Positions 3,459 to 63,588 of a DNA stretch of 64,000 nt are shown piece by piece (the first letter of the stretch is position 1; each line of letters begins with the position of its first letter). Source of the stretch: Alphaproteobacteria bacterium (GTDB lineage: Bacteria; Pseudomonadota; Alphaproteobacteria; JAEUKQ01); the NCBI GenBank assembly GCA_016794225.1, contig JAEUKQ010000001.1, positions 70,391-134,390 of the forward strand. Direction: 5' to 3'. Under the pieces are notes generated by a model. That model saw only the letters and a program-made list of their open reading frames with translations, was not told where the DNA came from and did no database searches. The position numbers and the translations under genes were made by a program.

Positions 3459-5262
3459 ATTCAGAGGTCACTGTGAGTTGTTCAAATTGATCAATCATCT
3501 TTTCAATAACCCCTATCCCCTGTTGCCAAAATTTGCCGTCCGCGACATCAATACCAAAAGGTAGCAGTAATTGTTGATAGGGTATAGCACCACCAGAGGA
3601 GAGTAAGTGGATATAATGTTCCATGAAAGAATGACTGGCATTCTGATAGATCCCATATAACGAGTTTACCAAACAATCTGCAAACGCATAAGCATATACA
3701 TAAAATGGGGTATGAATAAAATGTGGAATATATGACCAGTACCAGGAATATTCGGGTGCCAAATCAAAAGCAGGCCCTAGGCTTTCATTCTGAAACTCTA
3801 ACCATATTTCACCCAGCCTCTTTGGTGATAATTCACCCTGACGGCGTTCATGGTGAACTATAGTTTCGAATTGATGAAACGCAATTTGTCGAACAACAGT
3901 GTTAAGCATATCTTCAATTTTTCTGCTTAATAGCCCGGCTTTTTCATAAGAATTCTTGCACTGCCCAAGCAAATGTTGGAAGGTTAGCATTTCACCAAAA
4001 ATTGAAGCAGTTTCAGATAAGGGTAGTGAAGGTTCGGACATCAAAAACCCTTGTTGTGCAGACAGTGTTTGGTGCACCCCATGCCCTAGTTCATGCGCCA
4101 GGGTCATCACATCACGGATTGACCCATGAAAATTCACCAAAATATAAGGGTGCACGGACGGAACTGTCGGATGTGCGAAAGCACCCGCATCTTTTCCTGG
4201 ATAAACAGCCGCATCAATCCATCTATTATCAATAAATTTTTTGGCTATGTCCCTAAATTGCGGTGAAAAACTTGCAAAAGAATCGAGGACAAGATCACAA
4301 GCTTGAGGCCATGTAAATACCTGTTCTGTATCATGAAACAATGGGGTATTCCGATCCCAGTAAGCTAGTTTCTTAGCACCCATCAGCTGCTTTTTTAACT
4401 GATAATAACGATGTGCTGTTTTAGGGTACGATTGACGCACAGTTGCAACCAGAGTATCCACGACAGATGGTTCCACCTGATTTGCCAGATGCCTGGCCGA
4501 TGCTGGCGTATTGAAGCGACGCCATAGGTCTTCTGTTTCCTTGTCTTTTGCCAATGTATTTGTAATTAAGCTTAGCAAATTAATATTTTCCTGCAAAACA
4601 CGTGCTATTTCGCAAGCAGCTTCCTGACGTTCAGTTGCAATCGGACTTTGCAACATATGGAAAGCTTCACTTTGTGTTTTTGATTGTCCAGCAATATTAA
4701 ACCGTAGCTTGGCCATGGTTTCATCATACAACCGAATCCAAGCTTGCCGACCACTAAGCGATTTTTCCAGGGAAAATTTTTCTAGATCGTCAGAAAGCTG
4801 GTGGGGCGCAAATGCTCTAACCACTCGTAGCCACCCAGCAAATTTTTTTATGCCAACATCCTTCAGGATTTGTATAAAATTAGTTTCAGGGATTTTATTA
4901 ATTTCTAGCATAAAAAACAGGGTTTTAGATGATGCTTGGGTTGTTTTATCCTGTATGTTTTGTAAAAAACTGCCCGTTAATGGGTTGTTTGAATCTGTCG
5001 CATGCCTTAAATACGCATAAGACATTAATTTACCAGATATTTCTTCAATATGCTGATACGCGTGTATTGCAGCCAACAAATCGCTTTGAAGACTTGCTAT
5101 TTTCCCCTGGTATTTTTTTTGAAATGCATTTGCGTGTTCTAGCAACATGTTTAAATCACGAACTAAAGCGGGGTCATCTGGGGCTTCATATAAATCACCC
5201 AGGTGCCAGTGAGGTAAGTTTTGTTGCTTGAATTGTTTGGAATTTTGTTTTTTATTTATCAT
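3442..5262 (-). CDS. pepF: oligoendopeptidase F, M3B family metallopeptidase
   Basis: 606 aa. HELGH zinc-binding motif; length typical of PepF. Confidence 0.8.
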   Translation of the reverse strand: MINKKQNSKQFKQQNLPHWHLGDLYEAPDDPALVRDLNMLLEHANAFQKKYQGKIASLQSDLLAAIHAYQHIEEISGKLMSYAYLRHATDSNNPLTGSFLQNIQDKTTQASSKTLFFMLEINKIPETNFIQILKDVGIKKFAGWLRVVRAFAPHQLSDDLEKFSLEKSLSGRQAWIRLYDETMAKLRFNIAGQSKTQSEAFHMLQSPIATERQEAACEIARVLQENINLLSLITNTLAKDKETEDLWRRFNTPASARHLANQVEPSVVDTLVATVRQSYPKTAHRYYQLKKQLMGAKKLAYWDRNTPLFHDTEQVFTWPQACDLVLDSFASFSPQFRDIAKKFIDNRWIDAAVYPGKDAGAFAHPTVPSVHPYILVNFHGSIRDVMTLAHELGHGVHQTLSAQQGFLMSEPSLPLSETASIFGEMLTFQHLLGQCKNSYEKAGLLSRKIEDMLNTVVRQIAFHQFETIVHHERRQGELSPKRLGEIWLEFQNESLGPAFDLAPEYSWYWSYIPHFIHTPFYVYAYAFADCLVNSLYGIYQNASHSFMEHYIHLLSSGGAIPYQQLLLPFGIDVADGKFWQQGIGVIEKMIDQFEQLTVTSEYGRKR

Positions 5263-54646: not shown

Positions 54647-55660
54647 TTAACGAATCTCTCCTACCTTAAGACCCGCACGATTTTTGATGATAGGATGAAG
54701 AAATTTTTCTAACGCTGGATAATCAGCCTTGGTTAAGGCGCCAACCTCCAGCAAGATTTTTATCATTCCCATTTCAGCAGCCCGAATTGCCCCATCGGCT
54801 GTTTTTAGGGTAATTCCCAAACCTTGTTTTGGTAAAACGGCTATATAAACCCCCTCTGCCCCTACTTTTACAAAGCCGCGATCGTGCAATTGCTGTGTAA
54901 CTAAACTGCAAAAACGCCCATGCCCAGCAATCATCAGCGGATTTGCTTGAATAGCGCGTGTAATACGCTGAATAGCCTGTTGCCGCTTGATCGGAATATC
55001 GAGCGGATTTGCAAAACGCGCCATGGCCAGTGCTGTATGCCTTAAAGAGATTCCAACAACCGGAATGCCACAACCATCAACCCCCTTAGGTGCTTCTGCC
55101 AGGGAAATGCCTGCCATCTCTTCTAACACGGTGACAATTCGTTGTTGCACTGGGTGTTGATAATTTACATAACCCTTGAGTTCTTCTTGATAAAATTTTG
55201 CTGTCGTTAAAAAACCAGTGTGTTTGCCAGAACAGTTATTATGTATAGGGCTCGGTTTACGGCCTGTTCGAATCAGTTCTTCGGCTACACCACTATGATA
55301 AGGGGCATGTACGCCACAGCATAAATCATGTTCAGAACAGCCAATTTTCTGCAGCCAGGCAGTGACAGCATTGGTGTGTGTTTCCTCTCCCTCATGCGAG
55401 GCACAAGCCAAGGCAATTTCATGATCTGCCAACCCAAAATGATCAACAGCACCACTTTCAATTAAGGGTAATGCTTGCAATGGTTTAATTGCAGAACGTG
55501 CATAGACAATCTTTTCAGGATCCCCCCAACTTTTAAGCACCTGATTATCATAACGAACAACAGCCGCATGAATTGAATGAACGCTTTCAACCATATTGCC
55601 GCGTGTAACCTCAACCACTAGGGGAGAGGGTAATTGTTGGGATGTTTTTTGTTTCATCAT
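54647..55660 (-). CDS. asparaginase family protein (Asparaginase_II, Rhizobium AnsA type)
   Basis: 337 aa. Resembles thermolabile L-asparaginase II-family proteins of about 330 aa. Not the classical type I/II periplasmic enzyme. Confidence 0.5.
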   Translation of the reverse strand: MMKQKTSQQLPSPLVVEVTRGNMVESVHSIHAAVVRYDNQVLKSWGDPEKIVYARSAIKPLQALPLIESGAVDHFGLADHEIALACASHEGEETHTNAVTAWLQKIGCSEHDLCCGVHAPYHSGVAEELIRTGRKPSPIHNNCSGKHTGFLTTAKFYQEELKGYVNYQHPVQQRIVTVLEEMAGISLAEAPKGVDGCGIPVVGISLRHTALAMARFANPLDIPIKRQQAIQRITRAIQANPLMIAGHGRFCSLVTQQLHDRGFVKVGAEGVYIAVLPKQGLGITLKTADGAIRAAEMGMIKILLEVGALTKADYPALEKFLHPIIKNRAGLKVGEIR

Positions 55661-55836
55661 CGAATCACATCGTTTTTGTTGGTTGAATAAAACACTGCAG
55701 CAGATTTATAATACAAGAATGTTAATTCCGCCAGATAATCTTGGCTGTTCTGGTGGTTAAATTTTTACAAAAAATTAATGTTACGGCAAATATAAATAGC
55801 CTTTTTTCCGAATCAGCACATGATAAGTAATTATTT

Positions 55837-56406
55837 TTGATAGCAAAATGCAGGAGACTATCGACGATGAAAAAACTTTTACAATCTATTTCCGTTATAT
55901 CTATGATTTTTTTATCAACCGGTCTTGTTGCCCAACAACCCAAACCAACCATGACTGACTTGGGCAAATTCGACAACTGGCAAGCTGCTTCTTTTGAGGA
56001 AAATGGCAAAACTGGCTGCTTCATGGTTAGTGATGCTGTGAAGTCGGAAGCGGTTGAGGGCAGCTACAGCAGTCGTGGGCGTGTTTATATGATGATCACA
56101 CACCGTCCGGCTAATAATACATTAGATACCGTAACTTTTTTCACAGGCTATCCATACAAGCTTAATAGTGAAGTAACAATCCAGGTTGATAATGGCGCAA
56201 AACATATTTTATTCACCCAAGATGACAAGGCATGGGTAAAAGATGCTAATGGCGACAAAATTTTAGTTGATGCCATGCGGCGCGGTAAAAATTTGACTGT
56301 TCTTGGAACCTCAGCACGCAACACAAAGACCCGTGACACATTCTCATTAACTGGTTTTTCAAAAGCTTATGCAGCAATCAATACCGCTTGTAACGTGACC
56401 CGTTAA
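55837..56406 (+). CDS. secreted protein, unknown function (possibly invasion-associated-locus-B-like)
   Basis: 189 aa. Signal peptide (LVAQQ). Two conserved Cys. Size and composition are reminiscent of IalB-family proteins. Weak call. Confidence 0.4.
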   Translation: MIAKCRRLSTMKKLLQSISVISMIFLSTGLVAQQPKPTMTDLGKFDNWQAASFEENGKTGCFMVSDAVKSEAVEGSYSSRGRVYMMITHRPANNTLDTVTFFTGYPYKLNSEVTIQVDNGAKHILFTQDDKAWVKDANGDKILVDAMRRGKNLTVLGTSARNTKTRDTFSLTGFSKAYAAINTACNVTR

Positions 56407-56507
56407 TGTTCTTGTACACCCGTTGGCAATTGCTTACACAGCTGATCTGTGGTATCGTTACAGGGTGGAGAACTTGTTTTTAATAATTAATAAGCATCGA
56501 TAGGCTT

Positions 56508-57665
56508 GTGATGGGTACAGCAACACATGCAATTCAGTTTGCGCCACCTGCAACGGTTAATGGCAAAATAAATTTGGTTGGGTTAAGTCGGCCTGAAATT
56601 ATTACCGCCTTAAAAGATTATAGCTTGCCTGGATTTCGTGCCAAACAATTGTGGCACTGGATTTATCACCATGGGGTTATTCACTTTGAACAGATGAATA
56701 ACTTATCCAAAGATGTTCGTTATTTGTTAGACCAGCATTTTGTTATTTCTCGTCCCAGTGTTAGCCGTTCTCTACATTCAACGGACAATACCCGCAAATG
56801 GTTGTTAAAAATGGTGGATGGACAAGAGATTGAATCTGTTTATATACCAGAAGAAGATAGGGGTACTTTGTGCGTATCATCGCAGGTAGGGTGTACGCTA
56901 ACTTGCAAATTTTGCCATACAGGCACCCAACGTTTGGTTCGGAACCTATCTACTGCCGAAATTGTTGGGCAAGTACTTAATGCACGCGATCAACTGGGCG
57001 AATGGCCATCTCCCCAGGATGGACGGCTGTTGTCAAATATTGTGATGATGGGAATGGGGGAACCCCTATATAATTATGATAATGTTGCCAAGGCCTTGAC
57101 GATTGTTATGGATGGCGAAGGCATATCATTGTCACGGCGTCGCATTACACTGTCAACTGCCGGTGTTGTACCCATGATCGAACGTTGTGGGGCCGAACTT
57201 AATGTTAACTTGGCTATATCACTGCACGCCGTTCATAACGAGTTGCGCGATTATTTGGTGCCAATTAACAAAAAATACCCTATTGAAGATCTTTTACAAG
57301 CATGCCGCAATTACCCGGGTGCCAGCAACGCCCGACGTATCACTTTTGAGTATGTTATGTTAAAAGATGTTAATGACTCGACCGCAGAAGCAAAAGAATT
57401 AGTACGCTTGATCCGTGGCATTCCTGCCAAGGTTAATCTGATACCTTTTAACCCCTGGCCTGGTGCCCCTTTTGAACGATCCAGCGACGAATCTATTCGC
57501 AAATTTAGCCAAATTGTTTTAGATGCTGGTTACGCATCGCCCATTCGAACACCACGCGGTGAAGATATTATGGCTGCATGCGGACAACTTAAATCTGATA
57601 GTATTCGCCAACGACGCGAACAACAAGTTGTATCAGCCATTGCAGCAGCAATTAATCAATCGTGA
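56508..57665 (+). CDS. rlmN: 23S rRNA (adenine2503-C2)-methyltransferase, radical SAM
   Basis: 385 aa. [11 protein letters not shown] radical-SAM cluster motif and conserved RlmN C-terminal Cys. Confidence 0.85.
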
Positions 57666-57715
57666 TTGTCTTTGGATAATCAAGCCTTTTATTTATTAGG
57701 CTAATCGAATTGGGT

Positions 57716-57743
57716 TTGATCTTTTGCCTAGATTATTTATAAT
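57716..57743 (+). promoter_or_regulatory. sigma70-like promoter TTGATC-N16-TATAAT upstream of VOC paralog 1
   Basis: -35 at 57716-57721 and -10 at 57738-57743. Embedded in a 21-bp block (gaattgggtttgatcttttgc) that is repeated identically upstream of paralog 2. Confidence 0.55.
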
Positions 57744-57799
57744 GCTATATGATTGATAAAGCATTATCTTCTAAAACACAACCTTTGTTGGAGGAATAA

Positions 57800-58177
57800 A
57801 TGGATTCAGTAATGCATTTTGAAGTTGTTTTTGACAATAAAGAACGTGCTAAAAAATTTTACCAAAGTGCTTTTGGCTGGCAGTTCCAAGAAATGCCGGG
57901 TATGGATTATGTAATGGCTATGACCGCCGAAAGCGATAAACAGGGTGCCCCTAAGGAAACAGGTCGGATTAATGGCGGCATGATGAAGAAAGACCCAAGT
58001 GCTGGCTATCCGTTATTGGTAGTTACTGTTAAATCTATTGAGGCTGCGCTTAAAAAGGTAGAAAGCAGTGGCGGGAAAACAGTTTTGGCTAAACAATCTG
58101 TTGGTAACTTTGGTTATTATGCCCGCGTCAAAGATACAGAAGGTAATGTCTTAGGCCTTTGGGAAAGTAAAAAATAG
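57800..58177 (+). CDS. VOC (glyoxalase/bleomycin-resistance fold) family protein, paralog 1
   Basis: 125 aa. Single VOC domain. GGAGGA SD sequence 5 nt upstream. Confidence 0.7.
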   Translation: MDSVMHFEVVFDNKERAKKFYQSAFGWQFQEMPGMDYVMAMTAESDKQGAPKETGRINGGMMKKDPSAGYPLLVVTVKSIEAALKKVESSGGKTVLAKQSVGNFGYYARVKDTEGNVLGLWESKK

Positions 58178-58197
58178 TTTTGATACCCTTTAGATAT

Positions 58198-58231
58198 AAA
58201 ACAGGGTATGCCTCACGACATACCCTGTTTA
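58198..58231 (+). terminator. hairpin terminator after VOC paralog 1
   Basis: aaacagggtatg-cctcacgac-ataccctgttt: 11-bp stem followed by a T-containing tail. Confidence 0.55.
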
Positions 58232-58578
58232 CTGGCATTTGTCTTATTGCCTCTAAGTTTAGTAGATTTGGGTAAAAAGTTCAGCGCCTTGTTTGTGTTT
58301 GGTACAAGTACAACACAAGCTATTCCTTTACCAACAACCCAACACACCCGGAATAACCCAAAATCTTTCTAGCCAAATATAGCTTTTTTGGTAAAAGCCC
58401 CCCTACATTCACAACGAACAACCTAATAAATTGCCATGGGCAAAATTTGACTTTGGAATATATTAGATAGTGTAAATTCAAACCTATGTCTGTTTTCAAT
58501 AAACCGCGCAAAAAACAGACCTCTTGGATCATTCTATCATCATAAACTATAGCTCTTTGTATTGTAATAGAATTGGGT

Positions 58579-58606
58579 TTGATCTTTTGCTAAGAGGATT
58601 TATAAT
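58579..58606 (+). promoter_or_regulatory. sigma70-like promoter TTGATC-N16-TATAAT upstream of VOC paralog 2
   Basis: Same hexamers and spacing as at 57716. Shares the 21-bp identical block at 58570-58590. Confidence 0.55.
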
Positions 58607-58660
58607 ACAGCCAAAGTTCATCAATTATTACTTTTGACGCACTCTTTCTAGGAGGAATAT

Positions 58661-59035
58661 ATGGACTCGGTAACCCATTTCGAGATTATTTTTGATAATA
58701 AAGAACGCGCTAAAAAATTTTACCAAAATACCTTTGGCTGGCAATTTCAAGAAGTTGGTAAGGGGTATGTCATGGCAATAACCGCAGAAAGCAATGCACA
58801 TGGCACTCCCAAAGAGGCAGGACGTATTAACGGTGGTATGATGCCCAAAGATCAAAATACCAACTATCCGTTATTAGTAGTTACCGTTACCTCCATTGAT
58901 GCCGCACTTAAAAAGGTAGAAAGCAGTGGTGGAAAAACAGTTTTGGCTAAACAATCTGTTGGTAACTTTGGTTATTATGCCCGCATTAAAGATACGGAAG
59001 GTAACGTTTTGGGCCTTTGGGAAAACATAAAATAA
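58661..59035 (+). CDS. VOC (glyoxalase/bleomycin-resistance fold) family protein, paralog 2
   Basis: 124 aa. About 80% identical to paralog 1 overall. The 3' about 150 nt are nearly identical at the DNA level. Confidence 0.7.
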   Translation: MDSVTHFEIIFDNKERAKKFYQNTFGWQFQEVGKGYVMAITAESNAHGTPKEAGRINGGMMPKDQNTNYPLLVVTVTSIDAALKKVESSGGKTVLAKQSVGNFGYYARIKDTEGNVLGLWENIK

Positions 59036-59124
59036 TTTACAGGCAATTTAGAACAATCATTTTATGTAATACTTTGTGTAACAGTTTTAGTTTTATCACT
59101 TAATTTTAAGACATCGGATTTCGA

Positions 59125-60252
59125 ATGAAAAATTATATTCCCTTTCCTGTACGTGCCGGCAAAACTTCGCGCCAGGCACACACCAATTTACCGGAAGGTT
59201 CTTACGAGCGTGAAATTGGCAAAGATGGTTTTTTTGGTCCAGCCAGCCACATGTACCACAAACATCCGCCAACTGGCTGGGTTGATTGGCAGGGTCCCTT
59301 GCGACCACGGGCTTTTGACCTAAACAAACTACCAAATTTGTCAACTTGTCCTTGGCAAATACCCGATGTTTTATATAATGCCCATACCCGTATCCGTTTT
59401 TGGCGTTTATCACAAAAAATGGACCACCTCGTGCGTAACGGTGATGGGGATGAATTATTGTTTGTTCATCAGGGGACAGCAGAACTTTATTGTGATTTTG
59501 GTCATCTTAGCATTCGTGCAGGTGATTATATTATGGTGCCGCGAAGCACAATGTGGCGCCTTGAACCCACCAAGGGTGAATTACAATTGTTGCTGATAGA
59601 GGCCACAAACAGCAGTTATCAACTTCCGGATAAAGGGTTGCTTGGACCGCATGCCATTTTTGATCCAGCCATGCTTGACGTTCCAGCGCTTGATGAAGCT
59701 TTCTTAGCCCAACAAAACGAAAAGAAATGGCAGGTGCGGATTAAGCGGCGGCAAGCCATTTCAACTGTAACATACCCCTTCAACCCCTTGGATGCCGTGG
59801 GCTGGAAAGGTGATCTTGCCCCCGTACGAATTAATGTTGCGGATATACGGCCCCTCTTAAGCCATCGCTATCATCTACCACCATCAGCGCATACCACGTT
59901 TGTGGCTAATCGTTTTGTTGTATGCACTTTTGCCCCAAGACCTTTTGAAACAGATGCAGATGCAATCAAAATTCCCTTCTTTCATAATAATGATGATTAT
60001 GATGAAGTGTTATTTTACCATGCCGGAGATTTTTTCAGCCGCGATAACATCAAGGCCGGAATGATGACCTTTCATCCTTGCGGCTTTACGCATGGACCAC
60101 ACCCCAAGGCCCTCCAAAATATGATGGTTCAAAAAAAACCCGCCACAGACGAGTATGCGGTTATGATTGACACGCGGGATGCCCTAGAACTTGGAACTTT
60201 GCCCGATGGCATTGAGAACATGGCCTATGTCGACAGTTGGAAGAAAACCTAA
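59125..60252 (+). CDS. hmgA: homogentisate 1,2-dioxygenase family protein (short N-terminus form)
   Basis: 375 aa. C-terminal HGD active-site region is conserved (PFFHNND..., FHPCGFTHGPHPKA, compare human PYYHRN/TPHGPD). Lacks about 60 N-terminal residues found in canonical HGD. Confidence 0.6.
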   Translation: MKNYIPFPVRAGKTSRQAHTNLPEGSYEREIGKDGFFGPASHMYHKHPPTGWVDWQGPLRPRAFDLNKLPNLSTCPWQIPDVLYNAHTRIRFWRLSQKMDHLVRNGDGDELLFVHQGTAELYCDFGHLSIRAGDYIMVPRSTMWRLEPTKGELQLLLIEATNSSYQLPDKGLLGPHAIFDPAMLDVPALDEAFLAQQNEKKWQVRIKRRQAISTVTYPFNPLDAVGWKGDLAPVRINVADIRPLLSHRYHLPPSAHTTFVANRFVVCTFAPRPFETDADAIKIPFFHNNDDYDEVLFYHAGDFFSRDNIKAGMMTFHPCGFTHGPHPKALQNMMVQKKPATDEYAVMIDTRDALELGTLPDGIENMAYVDSWKKT

Positions 60253-60261
60253 ACTAATCTA

Positions 60262-61260
60262 TTGGGACTAAGAATTAATATGAAACTTGCCACGCTTAAA
60301 AACGGCCGCCGCGACGGTCAACTTGTTGTTGTAAGCAGCGACTTAAAATTTTGTGTTCCTGTAGAAATTCCTACTTTACAAGAAGCACTAGATAATTGGG
60401 GCAAAATCAGCCCACAATTAGCAAAAATGTTTCAACAGCTGCAACAGGGTCAAGCAAAAAACGCTGTTCCATTTAAGGCAGAAAACTGTTTATCCCCCCT
60501 GCCCCGAGCATATCAATGGGCTGATGGTTCGGCTTATGTTAATCATGTTGAACTTGTTCGTAAAGCCCGTGGTGCAGACATGCCAGCCAGCTTCTGGACT
60601 GACCCGTTGATGTACCAGGGAGGTTCAGATAGTTTTTTAGCACCGCTTGAGGATATCGCCCTGGCACAGGAAGAATGGGGCATCGATTTTGAGGCTGAGG
60701 TAGCGGTTATAACAGACGATGTTCCCATGGGCATATCTGCTGTAGAAGCTGTAGATCATATTAAATTGATTATGTTGGTTAACGATGTTTCTTTACGCAA
60801 TTTAATTCCTGCAGAACTGGCAAAAGGTTTTGGCTTTTTTCAAAGCAAACCGTCTTCATCCTTTTCACCCGTTGCCGTCACCCCGGATGAACTTGGTAGT
60901 AATTGGGATGGCCGAAGGTTGCATTTGCCCCTTTATAGCTATGTTAATGATCAGTTATTTGGCAAACCAAATGCAGGCATTGATATGACCTTTGATTTTT
61001 GCCAATTAATTGCCCATGCGGCGAAAACAAGGCCTTTAGCGGCTGGAACGATTATTGGCTCGGGAACAGTTTCTAATAAAAACCCAGAGGCTGGTTCTTC
61101 TTGTATTGCGGAACGACGCGTTCTTGAAACTTTAAAAGAAGGTAAACCTATAACATCTTTCTTGCGTTTTGGTGACCGGATACGTATTGAGATGCTTGAT
61201 TTAAAAGGCCATTCTATCTTCGGCGCCATTAATCAGCATGTGCAGCCATATAAACGGTAA
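60262..61260 (+). CDS. fumarylacetoacetate hydrolase (FAH) family protein
   Basis: 332 aa. FAH-fold metal and substrate motifs. Immediately downstream of the hmgA-like gene. Confidence 0.65.
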   Translation: MGLRINMKLATLKNGRRDGQLVVVSSDLKFCVPVEIPTLQEALDNWGKISPQLAKMFQQLQQGQAKNAVPFKAENCLSPLPRAYQWADGSAYVNHVELVRKARGADMPASFWTDPLMYQGGSDSFLAPLEDIALAQEEWGIDFEAEVAVITDDVPMGISAVEAVDHIKLIMLVNDVSLRNLIPAELAKGFGFFQSKPSSSFSPVAVTPDELGSNWDGRRLHLPLYSYVNDQLFGKPNAGIDMTFDFCQLIAHAAKTRPLAAGTIIGSGTVSNKNPEAGSSCIAERRVLETLKEGKPITSFLRFGDRIRIEMLDLKGHSIFGAINQHVQPYKR

Positions 61261-61487
61261 TAAGGATATGACTTCGCCACAAAAAACAAAACAGCAAAAA
61301 CATGCCCAAAAGTTGATTATTCTTGATGGTTAACCTCTTTCAGGGTAGTATAAGTCCCTGAAGCAAAGCAATTTCTGGTAATTCTGATATATGAATAAAC
61401 CGCACCTTCGTGGATGTCGGTAGTGTGATTTTGTTTTGCCTCAATATGGCTTCCATTTTCGTATATCTTTTTCTAAAGGAGGATACA

Positions 61488-61691
61488 TTGGCAACAGGAA
61501 CAGTAAAATGGTTTAACTTCAAAAAAGGATATGGTTTTATTCAACCAGAAGATAATACTCAAGATATTTTTGTACATATTTCAGCTTTACAAAAAGCTGG
61601 TATTCATCAATTACTCGATGGCCAAAAAGTTAGTTATGAACTGGCTGCATACCGGGAAAAAGTATCGGCAGTAAATATTCAAATACTTTAA
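61488..61691 (+). CDS. cspA: cold-shock protein CspA family, TTG start
   Basis: 67 aa, (M)ATGTVKWFNFKKGYGFIQPED... RNP1 motif. AAAGGAGG SD sequence 5 nt upstream of TTG 61488. The GTG 61410 extension in the ORF track is inconsistent with the family N-terminus. Confidence 0.8.
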   Translation: MATGTVKWFNFKKGYGFIQPEDNTQDIFVHISALQKAGIHQLLDGQKVSYELAAYREKVSAVNIQIL

Positions 61692-61711
61692 GCTAGATAC
61701 TATCTGTTTTT

Positions 61712-61745
61712 AAAATAGGGCGGTTAAACCGCCCTATTTTTTCAC
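61712..61745 (+). terminator. rho-independent terminator after cspA
   Basis: aaaatagggcgg-ttaaa-ccgccctatttttt: 12-bp stem followed by a T-run. Confidence 0.75.
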
Positions 61746-61817
61746 CTGCGGCAATATGGTTTTTATCAGCTTGTTGCCTTTTTATTTTAGGTTTTTTATA
61801 AAGAATGTAACGGATTC

Positions 61818-62042
61818 TTGCTTAAGGAATTTTTTGTGTTTTCACCACTATCAAAACCTTATATTCAACCACGCAGCCCTTTATCTAGCTTGGGTCGGAA
61901 GATTGTTATTTTATTGTTAGCAAAGTTTTTCATAATTGCAGCTATGCGCTTTTGGTGGTTTAGTGGTGAGCAACGCCCCAAAATTAATCCCGGCCATATT
62001 GAACAACAATTTTTTTTAACCAACCAGGTGCCTCATGATTGA
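61818..62042 (+). CDS. small single-TM membrane protein ORF overlapping cydA start (hypothetical)
   Basis: 74 codons from TTG (or 66 from GTG 61842). Hydrophobic helix IVILLLAKFFIIAAMRFWWF. Its TGA stop lies within ATGATTGATATG of cydA. Confidence 0.35.
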   Translation: MLKEFFVFSPLSKPYIQPRSPLSSLGRKIVILLLAKFFIIAAMRFWWFSGEQRPKINPGHIEQQFFLTNQVPHD

Positions 62043-63588
62043 TATGGAAGTTGTTAACCTTTCCCGTCTTCAGTTTGCTTTAACTGCTTTGTATCACTTT
62101 CTTTTTGTGCCACTGACCTTAGGTTTATCAATCCTGATCGCCATTATGGAAAGTGTTTATGTGATGACCGGTAAAGAAATTTGGCGACAAATGACCAAAT
62201 TTTGGGGTGTCTTATTCGGTATTAACGTTGCAATGGGCGTGGCAACTGGTGTTACCATGGAATTTCAGTTCGGCACAAACTGGGCCTATTATTCACATTA
62301 TGTTGGTGATATTTTTGGTGTTCCACTTGCCGTTGAGGGTTTGATGGCTTTCTTTCTTGAGTCAACCTTCATTGGGCTATTTTTCTTTGGCTGGAGGCGG
62401 CTATCTAGAGTAGGGCATTTGGTTGCTACCTGGTTAATGGCAATCGGGGCTAATTTTTCAGCCTTATGGATTTTAATTGCAAATGGCTGGATGCAAAATC
62501 CTGTTGGTGCCGCCTTTAATATGGATACCATGCGTATGGAGTTAACGTCTTTAAGTGATGTGTTTTTTAATCCGGTTGCCCAGGCTAAATTCGTACACAC
62601 CGTTAGTGCTGGTTATGTTACAGGTGCGGTTTTTGTTCTGGCTATTAGCGCTTGGTACCTGTTACGTAAGAGACATTATGAATTTGCCAAAAGATCGTTC
62701 ACTGTAGCCGCCAGCTTTGGTCTTGCCTCTGCTTTGTCGGTGGTTGTTCTCGGTGACGAAAGTGGTTATGTAGCAACAGAACATCAGAAAATGAAACTTG
62801 CAGCTATCGAGGCCATGTGGGAGACAGAGCCAGCTCCAGCAGGATTTACCATTTTTGGCCTGCCAGATGTTGAAGCCAAAAAAACCCACTATGAAGTAAA
62901 AATTCCTTGGTTGCTTGGTGTTATTACAACTCGCTCGCTAAGCCAGGAACTACCCGGTATCAATCAACTTGTTCAACACGGTGCTGAACGTATCAAGTCT
63001 GGGTTAATTGCATACCGGGCTTTGCAAATTTTAAAACAAGATCGTAATAATCAAGCCGCCCTTGAGGATTTTAAAAAACACCAACAGGATATGGGTTATG
63101 CTTTATTACTGCGCAAATCTTTAAATGACATTACGCAAGCAGCAGAAACAGATATAGCAGCAGCGGCAGATAGTTTGGTGCCAGATGTACCTGTTTTATT
63201 CTGGTCCTTCCGGATTATGGTTGGATTAGGCTTCTTTTTTATTTTCTTATTTGCTGCTGCCTTCTATTTATCAGCCAAACAACGCTTCGACCGCCGTTGG
63301 TTCTTAAAATTGGCTATCTATAGCCTGCCCCTGCCCTGGATCGCAGCTGAACTGGGCTGGATTGTTGCAGAATATGGACGCCAGCCTTGGATTATTGAAG
63401 GGATTCTTCCAACATTTTTAGGTGCCTCATCGGTTAGTGCCAGCCAGGTTTGGACCAGTTTAATTGGCTTTGTGGTTTTTTATTCTGCTTTGGCAATTAT
63501 TGACCTGTTTTTAATGATAAAATATGCCCGCCTTGGTCCTGACCAAGTAACACCCCTATCAAAACCTATAGCTCTAAACCCCATGTAA
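62035..63588 (+). CDS. cydA: cytochrome bd ubiquinol oxidase subunit I
   Basis: 517 aa. CydA family. Q-loop region and heme ligands conserved. Confidence 0.9.
   Translation: MIDMEVVNLSRLQFALTALYHFLFVPLTLGLSILIAIMESVYVMTGKEIWRQMTKFWGVLFGINVAMGVATGVTMEFQFGTNWAYYSHYVGDIFGVPLAVEGLMAFFLESTFIGLFFFGWRRLSRVGHLVATWLMAIGANFSALWILIANGWMQNPVGAAFNMDTMRMELTSLSDVFFNPVAQAKFVHTVSAGYVTGAVFVLAISAWYLLRKRHYEFAKRSFTVAASFGLASALSVVVLGDESGYVATEHQKMKLAAIEAMWETEPAPAGFTIFGLPDVEAKKTHYEVKIPWLLGVITTRSLSQELPGINQLVQHGAERIKSGLIAYRALQILKQDRNNQAALEDFKKHQQDMGYALLLRKSLNDITQAAETDIAAAADSLVPDVPVLFWSFRIMVGLGFFFIFLFAAAFYLSAKQRFDRRWFLKLAIYSLPLPWIAAELGWIVAEYGRQPWIIEGILPTFLGASSVSASQVWTSLIGFVVFYSALAIIDLFLMIKYARLGPDQVTPLSKPIALNPM

Follow-up and report, generated by a model that had tools for sequence, protein, structure and literature searches.

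Two small VOC-fold genes in tandem in an uncultured alphaproteobacterium: a likely rare two-copy haplotype of old paralogues with short-tract gene conversion

In a 64-kb stretch of DNA from an uncultured alphaproteobacterium (the whole stretch analysed here, hereafter the window), two small VOC-fold genes (c1 and c2, encoding VOC1 and VOC2) lie in tandem upstream of a homogentisate-1,2-dioxygenase-like (hmgA-like) gene and an FAH-family hydrolase gene. Each is preceded by the same 21-nt block, and the two share a nearly identical tract in their 3' parts. This raises the question of whether the pair forms a two-part enzyme serving its neighbours under common control, or reflects duplication and recombination of a more ordinary kind. 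The explanation that we consider likely is that the window carries a rare two-copy haplotype of a small VOC gene of the 2R6U type, in which old paralogues have undergone short-tract gene conversion and which has moved on a recombined patch. The ancestral order of the clade would be rlmN, promoter, one VOC gene, hmgA-like gene and FAH gene; in the window haplotype, an 863-nt segment made up of the rest of the promoter, c1, a hairpin and a 370-nt spacer would lie upstream of the resident c2, so that each copy comes with a conserved sigma-70 promoter and a ribosome-binding site of its own.

The two open reading frames were found as the original prediction had described them, as tandem VOC-fold paralogues of 124-125 aa with a 483-bp gap between them and a GGAGGA ribosome-binding site before each gene, and the copies stand 861 nt apart. 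The features of the locus are the following:

57626-59157, no strand: haplotype patch divergent from the nearest relative (L087), holding the whole tandem pair
57707-57727, plus strand: 21-nt shared block, copy 1 (-35 hexamer plus approximately 9 nt upstream)
57716-57743, plus strand: predicted sigma-70 promoter of c1, TTGATC-N16-TATAAT (10/12 consensus positions)
57790-57795, plus strand: GGAGGA ribosome-binding site of c1, read off the sequence
57800-58177, plus strand: VOC1 gene (c1), 125 aa, MBL8685961.1, intact, PF00903 and PF22677
58049-58126, plus strand: gene-conversion tract in c1, covering codons 84-109 (helix 2 end plus strands 6 and 7)
58195-58564, no strand: spacer of 370 nt, unique and non-coding, starting with the hairpin
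58199-58230, plus strand: hairpin 3' of c1, 12-bp perfect inverted repeat, probable intrinsic terminator
58570-58590, plus strand: 21-nt shared block, copy 2, exact repeat of copy 1
58579-58606, plus strand: predicted sigma-70 promoter of c2, TTGATC-N16-TATAAT (10/12 consensus positions)
58651-58656, plus strand: GGAGGA ribosome-binding site of c2, read off the sequence
58661-59035, plus strand: VOC2 gene (c2), 124 aa, MBL8685962.1, intact, PF00903 and PF22677
58907-58984, plus strand: gene-conversion tract in c2, partner of 58049-58126
59125-60252, plus strand: short-form homogentisate-1,2-dioxygenase-like gene, 375 aa, PF20510 (HgmA_N-type), outside the duplicated unit
60262-61260, plus strand: FAH-family hydrolase gene, PF18288 and PF01557

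From their sequences, both products can be assigned to the small VOC-fold proteins of the uncharacterized 2R6U (RHA04853) type. VOC1 and VOC2 score 36.3 and 37.4 bits against PF00903 (cut-off 20.6) and 45.6 and 34.9 bits against PF22677 (cut-off 24.5). The AF2 model of VOC1 (pLDDT 94.7) contains two modules, b1-a1-b2-b3-b4 and b5-a2-b6-b7-b8, as in the VOC superfamily, and its Foldseek matches are exclusively VOC structures. RHA04853 from Rhodococcus sp. RHA1 (PDB 2R6U), a single-domain VOC protein equal in size, gives a full-length profile match (E = 1.6e-43), superposes on the model with a TM-score of 0.94 and an rmsd of 1.2 A at 48% identity, and has the INGG and DTEGN motifs in common with the window proteins. 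Source names in its family include 'predicted enzyme related to lactoylglutathione lyase', and function is uncharacterized on both sides. In contrast to RHA04853, the window genes belong to an alphaproteobacterial MAG and lie beside the hmgA-like and FAH genes, a context specific to this clade. The modelled fold matches the non-swapped VOC arrangement, in which the pocket would be formed within one chain. Rv0577 of M. tuberculosis (PDB 3OXH) and KbpA of Streptomyces have the same non-swapped pocket topology, and each of their domains resembles VOC1 and VOC2 (E = 1.2e-16; NF053614, 3e-10); however, they are fused two-domain proteins of approximately 230-280 aa, whereas the window has two separate genes with their own promoters, and since NF053614 gives 40 bits against a cut-off of 250, c1 and c2 are not members of that family. 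Glyoxalase I (E. coli GloA, PDB 1F9Z) is of the same superfamily and size, but its domain-swapped chain superposes poorly on the model (TM 0.42). In an hhalign family alignment with GloA, H5 of GloA corresponds to H6, E56 to T54 (with E53 adjacent), H74 to L72 and E122 to the invariant G119. The metal ligands of glyoxalase I are thus lacking, two of the His/Glu/His/Glu quartet being replaced, by L72 and G119.

Relatives of the window were located through members of the protein clusters. One VOC gene stands between rlmN and the hmgA-like gene at all relatives' loci sampled from the same species-level clade (19/19), and the sister clade, represented by L005, L006 and a fully syntenic L007, likewise has a single VOC gene; only the window has two. 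c2 is orthologous to the lone VOC gene that every close relative carries and shares a 90% cluster with P0002 and P0115-P0121, and c1 is a singleton 90% cluster that has no relative at 90% identity or above among approximately 15 billion proteins. The two-copy haplotype was seen once only, in one MAG contig, and scans of JGI metagenomes for a degenerate version of EMPGMDYVMAMT, a peptide specific to c1, and for the junction between spacer and c2 block, returned no second example. The junction sequence at the two-copy locus is TGTAATAGAATTGGG.

Compared with L087, the window is 0-1% different over 54800-57600 and 59160-62100 and 4-6% different across 57626-59115, the dense differences beginning at 57626 and finishing at 59115-59157. 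Correspondingly, dS between the two is 0.02 for rlmN, 0.01 for the hmgA-like gene and 0.24 for the VOC gene. Because the 863-nt insertion of c1 and spacer falls within this divergent stretch, the pair sits on a recombined haplotype patch. The two-copy haplotype occupies a patch of approximately 2.4 kb, which was probably moved by homologous recombination, with breakpoints at the 3' end of rlmN and the start of the hmgA-like gene.

With a dS of approximately 1.5, c1 and c2 would be old paralogues, which postdate the split from the L007 clade and long predate the divergence of the strains. c1 is the conservative copy and retains ancestral features, e.g., EMPGMDYVMAMTAE, so that its product may be near the ancestral protein. 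c2 is the derived, faster-evolving copy, with one codon deleted and substitutions clustered at residues 32-69. Measured against L007, dN is 0.161 in c1 and 0.232 in c2, and with L007 as outgroup the nonsynonymous branches are approximately 0.04 and 0.11, respectively, such that c2 would have accumulated about three times more amino-acid change, mostly in loops at residues 32-69. This asymmetry points to residues 32-69 as a possible seat of specificity. Both copies are probably still under purifying selection, and dN/dS of c2 against Group I, a set of single-copy strains, is approximately 0.09. GC3 is 0.344 in c1 and 0.347 in c2; since the neighbouring genes range from 0.34 to 0.42 (the L007 clade is at approximately 0.51), the composition of c1 is native-like.

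The spacer is unlike the product of a simple tandem duplication, with one weak local match and otherwise negative comparisons, so an in situ origin of c1 is at most a tentative reading. BLAST of the spacer against the window and 86 loci found no match elsewhere, its semi-global alignment with the region downstream of c2 gave z = -0.7, an nhmmer profile built on six genomes, covering the intergenic and hmgA-like 5' region, yielded nothing better than shuffles, and its three-frame translation scored at the shuffle mean against the hmgA-like N-terminus. An Rfam scan of 57500-59300 (E <= 1) returned only a chance-level BTnc231 match (21 bits versus a cut-off of 80.4), so that neither the spacer nor the tract contains a known RNA. 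The weak local match joins 58374-58423 to 59220-59268 in the hmgA-like 5' region (36/50 nt, reached in 0/1000 shuffles), at an offset of 846 nt that is near the collinear 858-863 nt. At nonsynonymous sites, a four-point test gave sums of 0.391 for (c1,c2) and 0.380 for (c1,L005), and c1 and c2 are favoured as nearest relatives by synonymous sites and codon composition only.

Alternatively, c1 could be a xenologue from an unsampled sister lineage, at a dS of about 1.5 and with similarly AT-rich codon usage, which was inserted beside the resident c2; the later exchanges would then be homologous recombination between alleles. We regard this as a serious possibility, though on balance an unlikely one. 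The sampled relatives are all single-copy and of c2 type, and c1 is without a close relative anywhere, as would be expected of a foreign gene, but its GC3 is native-like and the faster evolution of c2 is the expectation after duplication. The same ambivalence applies to the spacer, for which global alignment and nhmmer show no relation to the region downstream of c2, whereas its one significant local match lies near the collinear offset in the hmgA-like 5' region. The locus is clearly a recombination hot spot, and the c1-like patch of Group I described below could derive directly from such a lineage; however, a syntenic donor should bring recognisable hmgA-like coding sequence after c1, and none is present.

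The 21-nt block (GAATTGGGTTTGATCTTTTGC), which the original prediction had reported before each gene, is indeed identical at the two sites and occurs exactly twice in the 64-kb window, where 0.02 occurrences are expected by chance; no further copy was found in the window with up to 3 mismatches, which gives no support for a regulon-wide operator within the 64 kb. The promoter had been placed inside the block. TTGATC-N16-TATAAT is present twice, but only the -35 hexamer falls within the block. The predicted promoter of c2 differs from that of the single gene of Group I at 1 position in 28 nt. Across nine promoters, including those of single-copy orthologues at saturating divergence, the block core G.ATT.G.TTTGATCT.T and a TATAAT 16 nt downstream are invariant, the core being unchanged in L005, L006, L007 and Groups I and II; the hexamers and their spacing are likewise invariant in the 9 sequences, and the sequence between -35 and -10 varies freely. 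This fits a conserved ancestral -35/upstream promoter element, and what had looked like a duplicated block turns out, in this interpretation, to be an ancestral one.

It had also been suggested that the block is a shared operator, i.e., a transcription-factor site whose duplication puts both copies under one regulator. The conservation is in line with such a site, as it extends past the -35 hexamer by approximately 9 nt on the upstream side (G.ATT.G.), at saturating divergence and with a variable -35/-10 spacer, but an UP-like element would equally give conservation there. Moreover, the block is not palindromic, does not recur in the window even at 3 mismatches, and has no regulator gene adjoining. 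The conservation in nine promoters agrees with a promoter element, and we consider the operator improbable.

A haplotype that occurs once, in a MAG, might also be an assembly artefact, in which two diverged alleles of co-occurring strains were joined in one contig. On either side, the sequence is near-identical to that of a common single-copy strain, the 21-nt and 51-nt exact repeats between the copies could confuse a de Bruijn graph, and the JGI scans gave no second example. However, a false duplication should leave flank-like sequence between the copies, where we find a unique, non-coding spacer opening with a well-formed hairpin, and c1, at approximately 20% nucleotide divergence from every c2 allele, is too far removed for a strain bubble. 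Both genes are intact with complete expression signals, and Group I strains from many independent samples have a c1-derived patch, so c1-type sequence exists in the gene pool. An artefact is thus very unlikely.

If the two-copy haplotype is taken as real, its transcripts are probably of two kinds. c1 is followed by a stable hairpin (z = -3.9 at a centroid energy of -17.6 kcal/mol, with 0/200 shuffles folding as well), and its transcript is probably monocistronic; a consensus terminator scan made no call at this hairpin because its T-run is weak. No stable structure was found between c2 and the hmgA-like gene, which suggests that c2 is probably co-transcribed with it.

The order of these downstream genes was confirmed, with an HgmA_N-type protein followed by an FAH-family protein, the latter probably starting at the ATG at 60280, because the products of its relatives are 326 aa long. 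The hmgA-like protein reaches 74 bits against TIGR01015, far below the equivalog threshold (510.75), and its best match to a homogentisate dioxygenase in the PDB is only 1.2e-11. A phmmer alignment with P. putida HmgA pairs its FHNN, DE and TFH with FHRN, E and SLH, respectively; the aligned His, Glu and His are the Fe(II) ligands in the P. putida structure. Over 8000 homologues that are 70-75% identical bear the name homogentisate 1,2-dioxygenase. Bacterial homogentisate clusters comprise hmgA, an FAH gene and a regulator, and the window likewise has a short-form HgmA-like dioxygenase followed by an FAH-family hydrolase; in this clade, however, the upstream place taken elsewhere by MarR is occupied by a small VOC gene. 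No isomerase gene (maleylacetoacetate isomerase included) and no HPPD gene was found next to the pair. Where the hmgA-like/FAH pair occurs in three other Alphaproteobacteria (Indioceanicola, Azospirillum and a JGI MAG), it has a divergent MarR gene alongside and no VOC gene. Conversely, 79 of the 80 VOC loci from GTDB species genomes are without hmgA-like/FAH neighbours, the adjacency being confined to the sister clade (L007). In the literature, a search for VOC genes within homogentisate or FAH clusters found nothing relevant. The small VOC protein is thus no general partner of the short-form hmgA-like/FAH module.

A functional role for the two-copy state can nevertheless be imagined. The haplotype might be a maintained functional polymorphism, in which c2 has taken on a new role tied to the hmgA-like/FAH pathway, c1 keeps the ancestral activity of the 2R6U family, both together provide a distinct capability, and repeated conversion keeps the C-terminal modules compatible. 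c2 could then act between ring cleavage and hydrolysis, in a step that needs no glutathione, within a cluster that is without a maleylacetoacetate isomerase. We give this scenario only a slight chance.

The original prediction had also raised the possibility that c1 and c2 together make up a heteromeric VOC enzyme, whose substrate would be an aromatic ring-cleavage intermediate handled in company with the hmgA-like and FAH proteins. Dimers are frequent among small VOC proteins, the VOC gene is directly upstream of the hmgA-like/FAH pair in this clade and its sister clade, c2 runs on to the hmgA-like gene without stable intervening structure, and a maleylacetoacetate isomerase gene was not seen beside the pair. 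But subunits should co-occur, whereas one copy suffices in every relative (the 19 clade loci and the sister clade) and c1 is a singleton. The fold, with its match to non-swapped 2R6U and its distance from swapped GlxI, and the replacement of two of the four GlxI metal ligands speak against it as well, as do the MarR-associated pairs without VOC and the 79 VOC loci of other species without hmgA-like/FAH neighbours. A heteromer is highly improbable, and the idea should not be carried on. As the extra copy is rare and found only in this genome, the locus speaks for ordinary duplication and recombination rather than for a new two-part enzyme.

The near-identity of the 3' parts is best followed in the mapped alignment of the two copies, along which divergence is not uniform. 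The last 150 nt, described at the outset as almost identical, contain 18 differences; what does exist is a discrete 78-nt tract (58049-58126 versus 58907-58984) with 2 mismatches, including a perfect run of 51 nt at 58076-58126, and the homogenised share of the gene is only about 20%. dS between c1 and c2 is 1.46 over codons 1-83, 0.12 over codons 84-109 and 1.46 over codons 110-125, i.e., the last 16 codons are as diverged synonymously as the 5' part. In permutation tests, the longest identical run has p = 8e-4 and the run of 19 unchanged degenerate codons p = 4e-3. The peptide encoded by the tract is identical in c1 and c2. The 51-nt run is the same in all c2-type genes, including the single-copy groups, and L007 differs at 14 of the 51 nt; the tract is synonymously saturated in this sister-clade orthologue (pS 0.78-0.83 versus L007), which excludes constraint at the level of nucleotides or codon bias and removes the need to invoke selection on a C-terminal interaction surface. 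A local collapse of dS flanked by normally diverged sequence supports gene conversion as the source of the tract, in agreement with one of the two causes first proposed. Most parsimoniously, the 78-nt tract would have been copied from c2 into c1, a direction judged by parsimony over a short tract. An antisense ORF or promoter was rejected as the cause of the tract, since the minus-strand promoter-like sites and ORFs sit outside it, in the 5' parts of the two genes.

A second, separate exchange is seen as well, probably in the other direction. Group I genes are c2-like overall and c1-like at six consecutive informative sites (58127-58153; run-length permutation p = 7e-4), and codon 110 is ATT in the window c2, in Group II and in the outgroups. 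The single-copy Group I strains accordingly carry a c1-derived patch of at least 27 nt (58127-58153), so that short-tract conversion has acted at the 3' end at least twice. The other cause first proposed, purifying selection holding the tract without recombination, whether for a protein interaction surface or an embedded nucleic-acid element, is largely refuted and scarcely credible: the tract does code the conserved end of helix 2 and strands 6 and 7 with the same peptide in both copies, but selection on protein cannot hold synonymous sites (dS 0.12 versus 1.46), the sister-clade orthologue differs in the tract in nucleotides and also at the protein level, an Rfam match or predicted signal is absent there, and the displaced c1-like patch of Group I represents a real transfer of sequence.

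The tufA/tufB genes of Salmonella exemplify concerted evolution of duplicated genes by short-tract gene conversion. As in that type of concerted evolution, the window has patchy identity, synonymous sites included, between diverged paralogues, with exchange in both directions; by contrast, its copies lie in tandem and the pair itself is a presence/absence polymorphism on a recombined patch. In our interpretation, the locus offers a clean, well-bounded natural case of two-directional short-tract gene conversion between old tandem paralogues, and the pair a rare presence/absence haplotype moving by homologous recombination in a species-level population of uncultured Alphaproteobacteria. Its significance outside the locus is small, and the finding is an ordinary one.

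The 21-nt block is the exact point at which the single- and two-copy states differ, so that interconversion by recombination across the block is possible. Were the two-copy state ancestral, Group I and Group II would each have lost c1, or else recombination would have spread a deletion allele.

The two VOC-fold genes of the window, c1 (VOC1) and the downstream c2 (VOC2), form a real tandem pair with a shared upstream block, as originally predicted: both are intact plus-strand open reading frames, and the block occurs exactly twice. They lie 483 bp apart, each with GGAGGA upstream of its ATG, and both proteins match PF00903 and PF22677 above the Pfam gathering scores. The 370-nt stretch between the two copies of the repeated unit has no counterpart. 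The window belongs to a MAG labelled Alphaproteobacteria bacterium. Its VOC locus is a two-copy haplotype, rare and recombination-borne, of a gene that is uncharacterized, and this single MAG is the one place where it was seen. It combines asymmetric divergence with repeated short-tract conversion, and is of low interest because the event is of a known kind.

Features of the VOC locus
57800-58177, +, c1 (VOC1), intact ORF, 125 aa, MBL8685961.1
58661-59035, +, c2 (VOC2), intact ORF, 124 aa, MBL8685962.1
about 57702-58194 and 58565-59052, two copies of the repeated unit
57707-57727 and 58570-58590, 21-nt block GAATTGGGTTTGATCTTTTGC, exact repeat, two occurrences in the window
57716-57743 and 58579-58606, TTGATC-N16-TATAAT, 10 of 12 consensus positions matched
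58049-58126 (c1) and 58907-58984 (c2), near-identical tract, 78 nt, 2 mismatches, 51-nt perfect run
58127-58153, six c1/c2-informative sites, c1-like at 6/6 in Group I (14 loci), c2-like at 5/6 in Group II (L093-L097)
58199-58230, hairpin 3' of c1, perfect 12 bp, -17.6 kcal/mol, z = -3.9

The 70 nucleotide differences in the c1-c2 codon alignment are unevenly distributed, with a Nei-Gojobori dS of 1.46 over codons 1-83, 0.12 over codons 84-109 and 1.46 over codons 110-125. The original prediction of near-identity over the last about 150 nt was too broad, as these contain 18 differences; what holds is the discrete 78-nt tract. Both the longest identical run (permutation p = 8e-4) and a run of 19 unchanged degenerate codons (p = 4e-3) exceed chance. 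In the orthologue of L007, a sister-clade locus, synonymous sites of the same tract are saturated (pS 0.78-0.83) and 14 of 51 positions differ, and therefore codon bias or nucleotide-level constraint cannot explain the c1-c2 identity. Purifying selection, one of the two reasons proposed for the tract, found no support; the other, gene conversion, accounts for it, the collapse of dS being confined to a tract that is saturated in L007. Over 58076-58126, c1 is identical to all c2-type genes, with a single difference in Group II, and by parsimony c1 would most likely be the recipient there.

Clustering of about 15 billion proteins at 90% identity leaves VOC1 on its own and groups VOC2 with eight other variants. 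Contigs retrieved for four of these (P0002, P0115, P0116 and P0117) yielded 19 loci, drawn from assemblies in ENA, Logan, JGI and NCBI; some of the contigs reach 228 kb. The order at all 19 is ialB, rlmN, one VOC gene, a homogentisate-dioxygenase-like (hmgA-like) gene, an FAH-family hydrolase gene and csp, with 130-131 nt from the rlmN end to the VOC start where rlmN was called. L007, the only close locus among the GTDB species genomes (amino-acid identity to the window 82% for RlmN and 86% for HmgA-like), has the same order with one VOC gene, and the short sister-clade contigs L005 and L006 agree with it. These loci show one copy to be the common state, and the outgroups make it the ancestral one. 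In the close relatives the gene is c2-type, with a one-codon deletion and the EV-GKG motif; the sister-clade gene is c1-like and retains EMPGMDYVMAMT. In the unconverted 5' part, nonsynonymous distances are 0.161 (c1-L007), 0.232 (c2-L007) and 0.148 (c1-c2), and taking L007 as the outgroup assigns a branch of about 0.04 to c1 and one of about 0.11 to c2. The rate of c2 is thus roughly three times that of c1, with the changes mainly at residues 32-69; in the AF2 model these make up the b2-b3 and b3-b4 loops and the linker between the modules. With dN/dS of about 0.1 for c1 vs c2 and about 0.09 for c2 vs Group I, purifying selection still acts on both copies. GC3 is the same in c1 (0.344) and c2 (0.347) and in line with the neighbours (0.34-0.42), not with the L007 clade (about 0.51), so c1 is native to the AT-rich clade of the window or to a close relative of it.

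The relatives, single-copy members of the same species-level clade, were sorted into Groups I and II, with window c2 as the reference state at the informative sites. Group I carries a run of six c1-like sites, with 13 of 70 sites c1-like (permutation p = 7e-4), and codon 110 is ATT in the outgroups, c2 and Group II. The parsimonious reading is that c1-type sequence donated the 58127-58153 patch to the Group I ancestor, so that c1-type DNA would have circulated in this gene pool and c1 would not be an assembly phantom. At least two exchanges in opposite directions would have occurred, the directions resting on parsimony.

The window with 57728-58590 removed was aligned to its nearest relative, L087. 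Divergence is 0-1% over 54800-57600 and 59160-62100 and 4-6% across the VOC locus, where the densely differing stretch runs from 57626 to 59115-59157; dS is 0.02 for rlmN, 0.01 for the hmgA-like gene and 0.24 for the VOC gene. High divergence at the locus against low divergence in the flanks indicates that the two-copy haplotype sits in a patch of about 2.4 kb within an otherwise L087-like background. The patch appears to carry the signature of homologous recombination, with a donor that would be diverged and unsampled. Between L087 and L098, divergence is 4-6% in parts of the flanks and about 1% in the VOC gene, and recombination at this locus is, from these alignments, evidently frequent. 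Along 7 kb (window 54800-62100), the divergence of these two Group I loci alternates between about 0.3% and 4-6%, a pattern that points to frequent homologous recombination across the whole region in this population of uncultured bacteria. At 57626-57696, which spans the final 40 nt of rlmN and the 30 intergenic nt that follow, the window has 15 differences in 70 nt from L087, a 3-nt indel among them. As it is closer here to Group II than to Group I, the patch has the look of a mosaic.

The 21-nt block has a chance expectation of 0.02 matches in the window, and no further copies with up to three mismatches were found elsewhere in the 64 kb. Across nine aligned promoters (those of c1 and c2, of Groups I and II, and of L005, L006 and L007), G.ATT.G.TTTGATCT.T and TATAAT do not vary, and the -35/-10 spacer, though variable in sequence, is 16 nt in all nine. 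These invariant columns identify the block as the -35 region of the ancestral promoter, conserved together with about 9 bases upstream of it. Selection has kept it in both copies, and recent duplication alone does not explain its presence; the operator role suggested earlier may apply but gained no positive support. In the single-copy relatives, a c1-type upstream flank meets a c2-type promoter exactly within the block, and therefore the one-copy and two-copy states can interconvert via recombination across it.

A hairpin follows c1, and no stable structure is present in the 89 nt that separate c2 from the hmgA-like gene (z = +0.5); c1 is probably monocistronic and c2 co-transcribed with the hmgA-like and FAH genes. 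The remaining spacer has no Rfam family and no match in the window or the fetched loci apart from one local match of 58374-58423 to 59220-59268, the hmgA-like 5' end (36/50 identities; score reached by 0 of 1000 shuffles). The match is offset by 846 nt, near the repeat period of 858-863 nt, as expected of a decayed tandem duplicate extending into the hmgA-like gene; global alignment (z = -0.7) and an nhmmer profile, however, detected nothing. We lean towards c1 as an in-situ duplicate over a xenologue inserted in tandem.

Among solved structures 2R6U, a Rhodococcus protein that is itself uncharacterized, comes closest (profile E = 1.6e-43), and the AF2 model (pLDDT 94.7) superposes on it at TM 0.94; Rv0577, AbxF and methylmalonyl-CoA epimerases follow at TM about 0.6-0.7. 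The domain-swapped chain of E. coli glyoxalase I fits poorly (TM 0.42), and in the profile alignment to GloA His5 alone is kept (H74 aligns with L72, and E122 with an invariant Gly), so a glyoxalase I identity is rejected. Both proteins are members of an uncharacterized subfamily of the VOC superfamily. This family has a scattered distribution that takes in Nitrosopumilaceae, CPR, DPANN and Acidobacteriota, among others. The next-closest homologue, P0004 (68% identity; L001, GCA_019695395.1, 6001-6384), lies between a MoCF_biosynth gene and a DUF6622 gene and not beside an hmgA-like gene; its region is syntenic with window 36.5-43 kb, which has no VOC paralogue, so the gene's location has changed between the two lineages. 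A Bacteroidia MAG (L075, 6001-6762) and a Micrarchaeota MAG (L083, 6001-6789, the second copy as two tblastn pieces) likewise have two VOC genes side by side on one strand, so tandem duplication of this family recurs in unrelated taxa.

The 375-aa neighbour protein matches HgmA_N, scores 74 against the hmgA equivalog cut-off of 510.75 bits and yet retains His/Glu/His in an alignment with P. putida HmgA. Its short-form family is large and highly conserved (>8000 matches) and is named homogentisate 1,2-dioxygenase at source, with 70-75% identity to homologues in Azospirillum, Indioceanicola and Rhodovibrionaceae. An hmgA-like or FAH neighbour is absent at 79 of 80 genome-contig VOC loci, and Indioceanicola profundi, Azospirillum halopraeferens and a JGI MAG have a divergently transcribed MarR gene, hmgA-like and FAH without a small VOC gene. 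The adjacency of VOC and hmgA-like genes is clade-specific and a weak ground for a shared pathway, and the proposed heteromeric VOC enzyme is unsupported, the relatives having a single VOC gene. In these three other Alphaproteobacteria (L104, L105 and L106, about 4350-4900 in each), the MarR-family gene is conserved directly upstream of hmgA-like/FAH; the window's clade lacks it and has the VOC gene in its position.

Among the surrounding genes, FAH probably starts at ATG 60280 and not TTG 60262 (326 aa in relatives), and RlmN at ATG 56511 and not GTG 56508 (384 aa in relatives). A small ORF at 61818-62042, overlapping the cydA start, corresponds to the CydP upstream of cydA in relatives (weak PF28236 match). 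Downstream of csp, L093, L095 and L096 lose similarity to the window from about 61650 (37-57% mismatch) and, in place of the cydP-cydA of the window, Group I and L094, have a 376-aa gene on the minus strand; this synteny break is polymorphic. In L093 (4593-4890), FAH was called at 277 aa, with a start about 270 nt downstream of that in its relatives and no FAA_hydro_N_2 match, and there may be a disruption or insertion between the hmgA-like gene and FAH.
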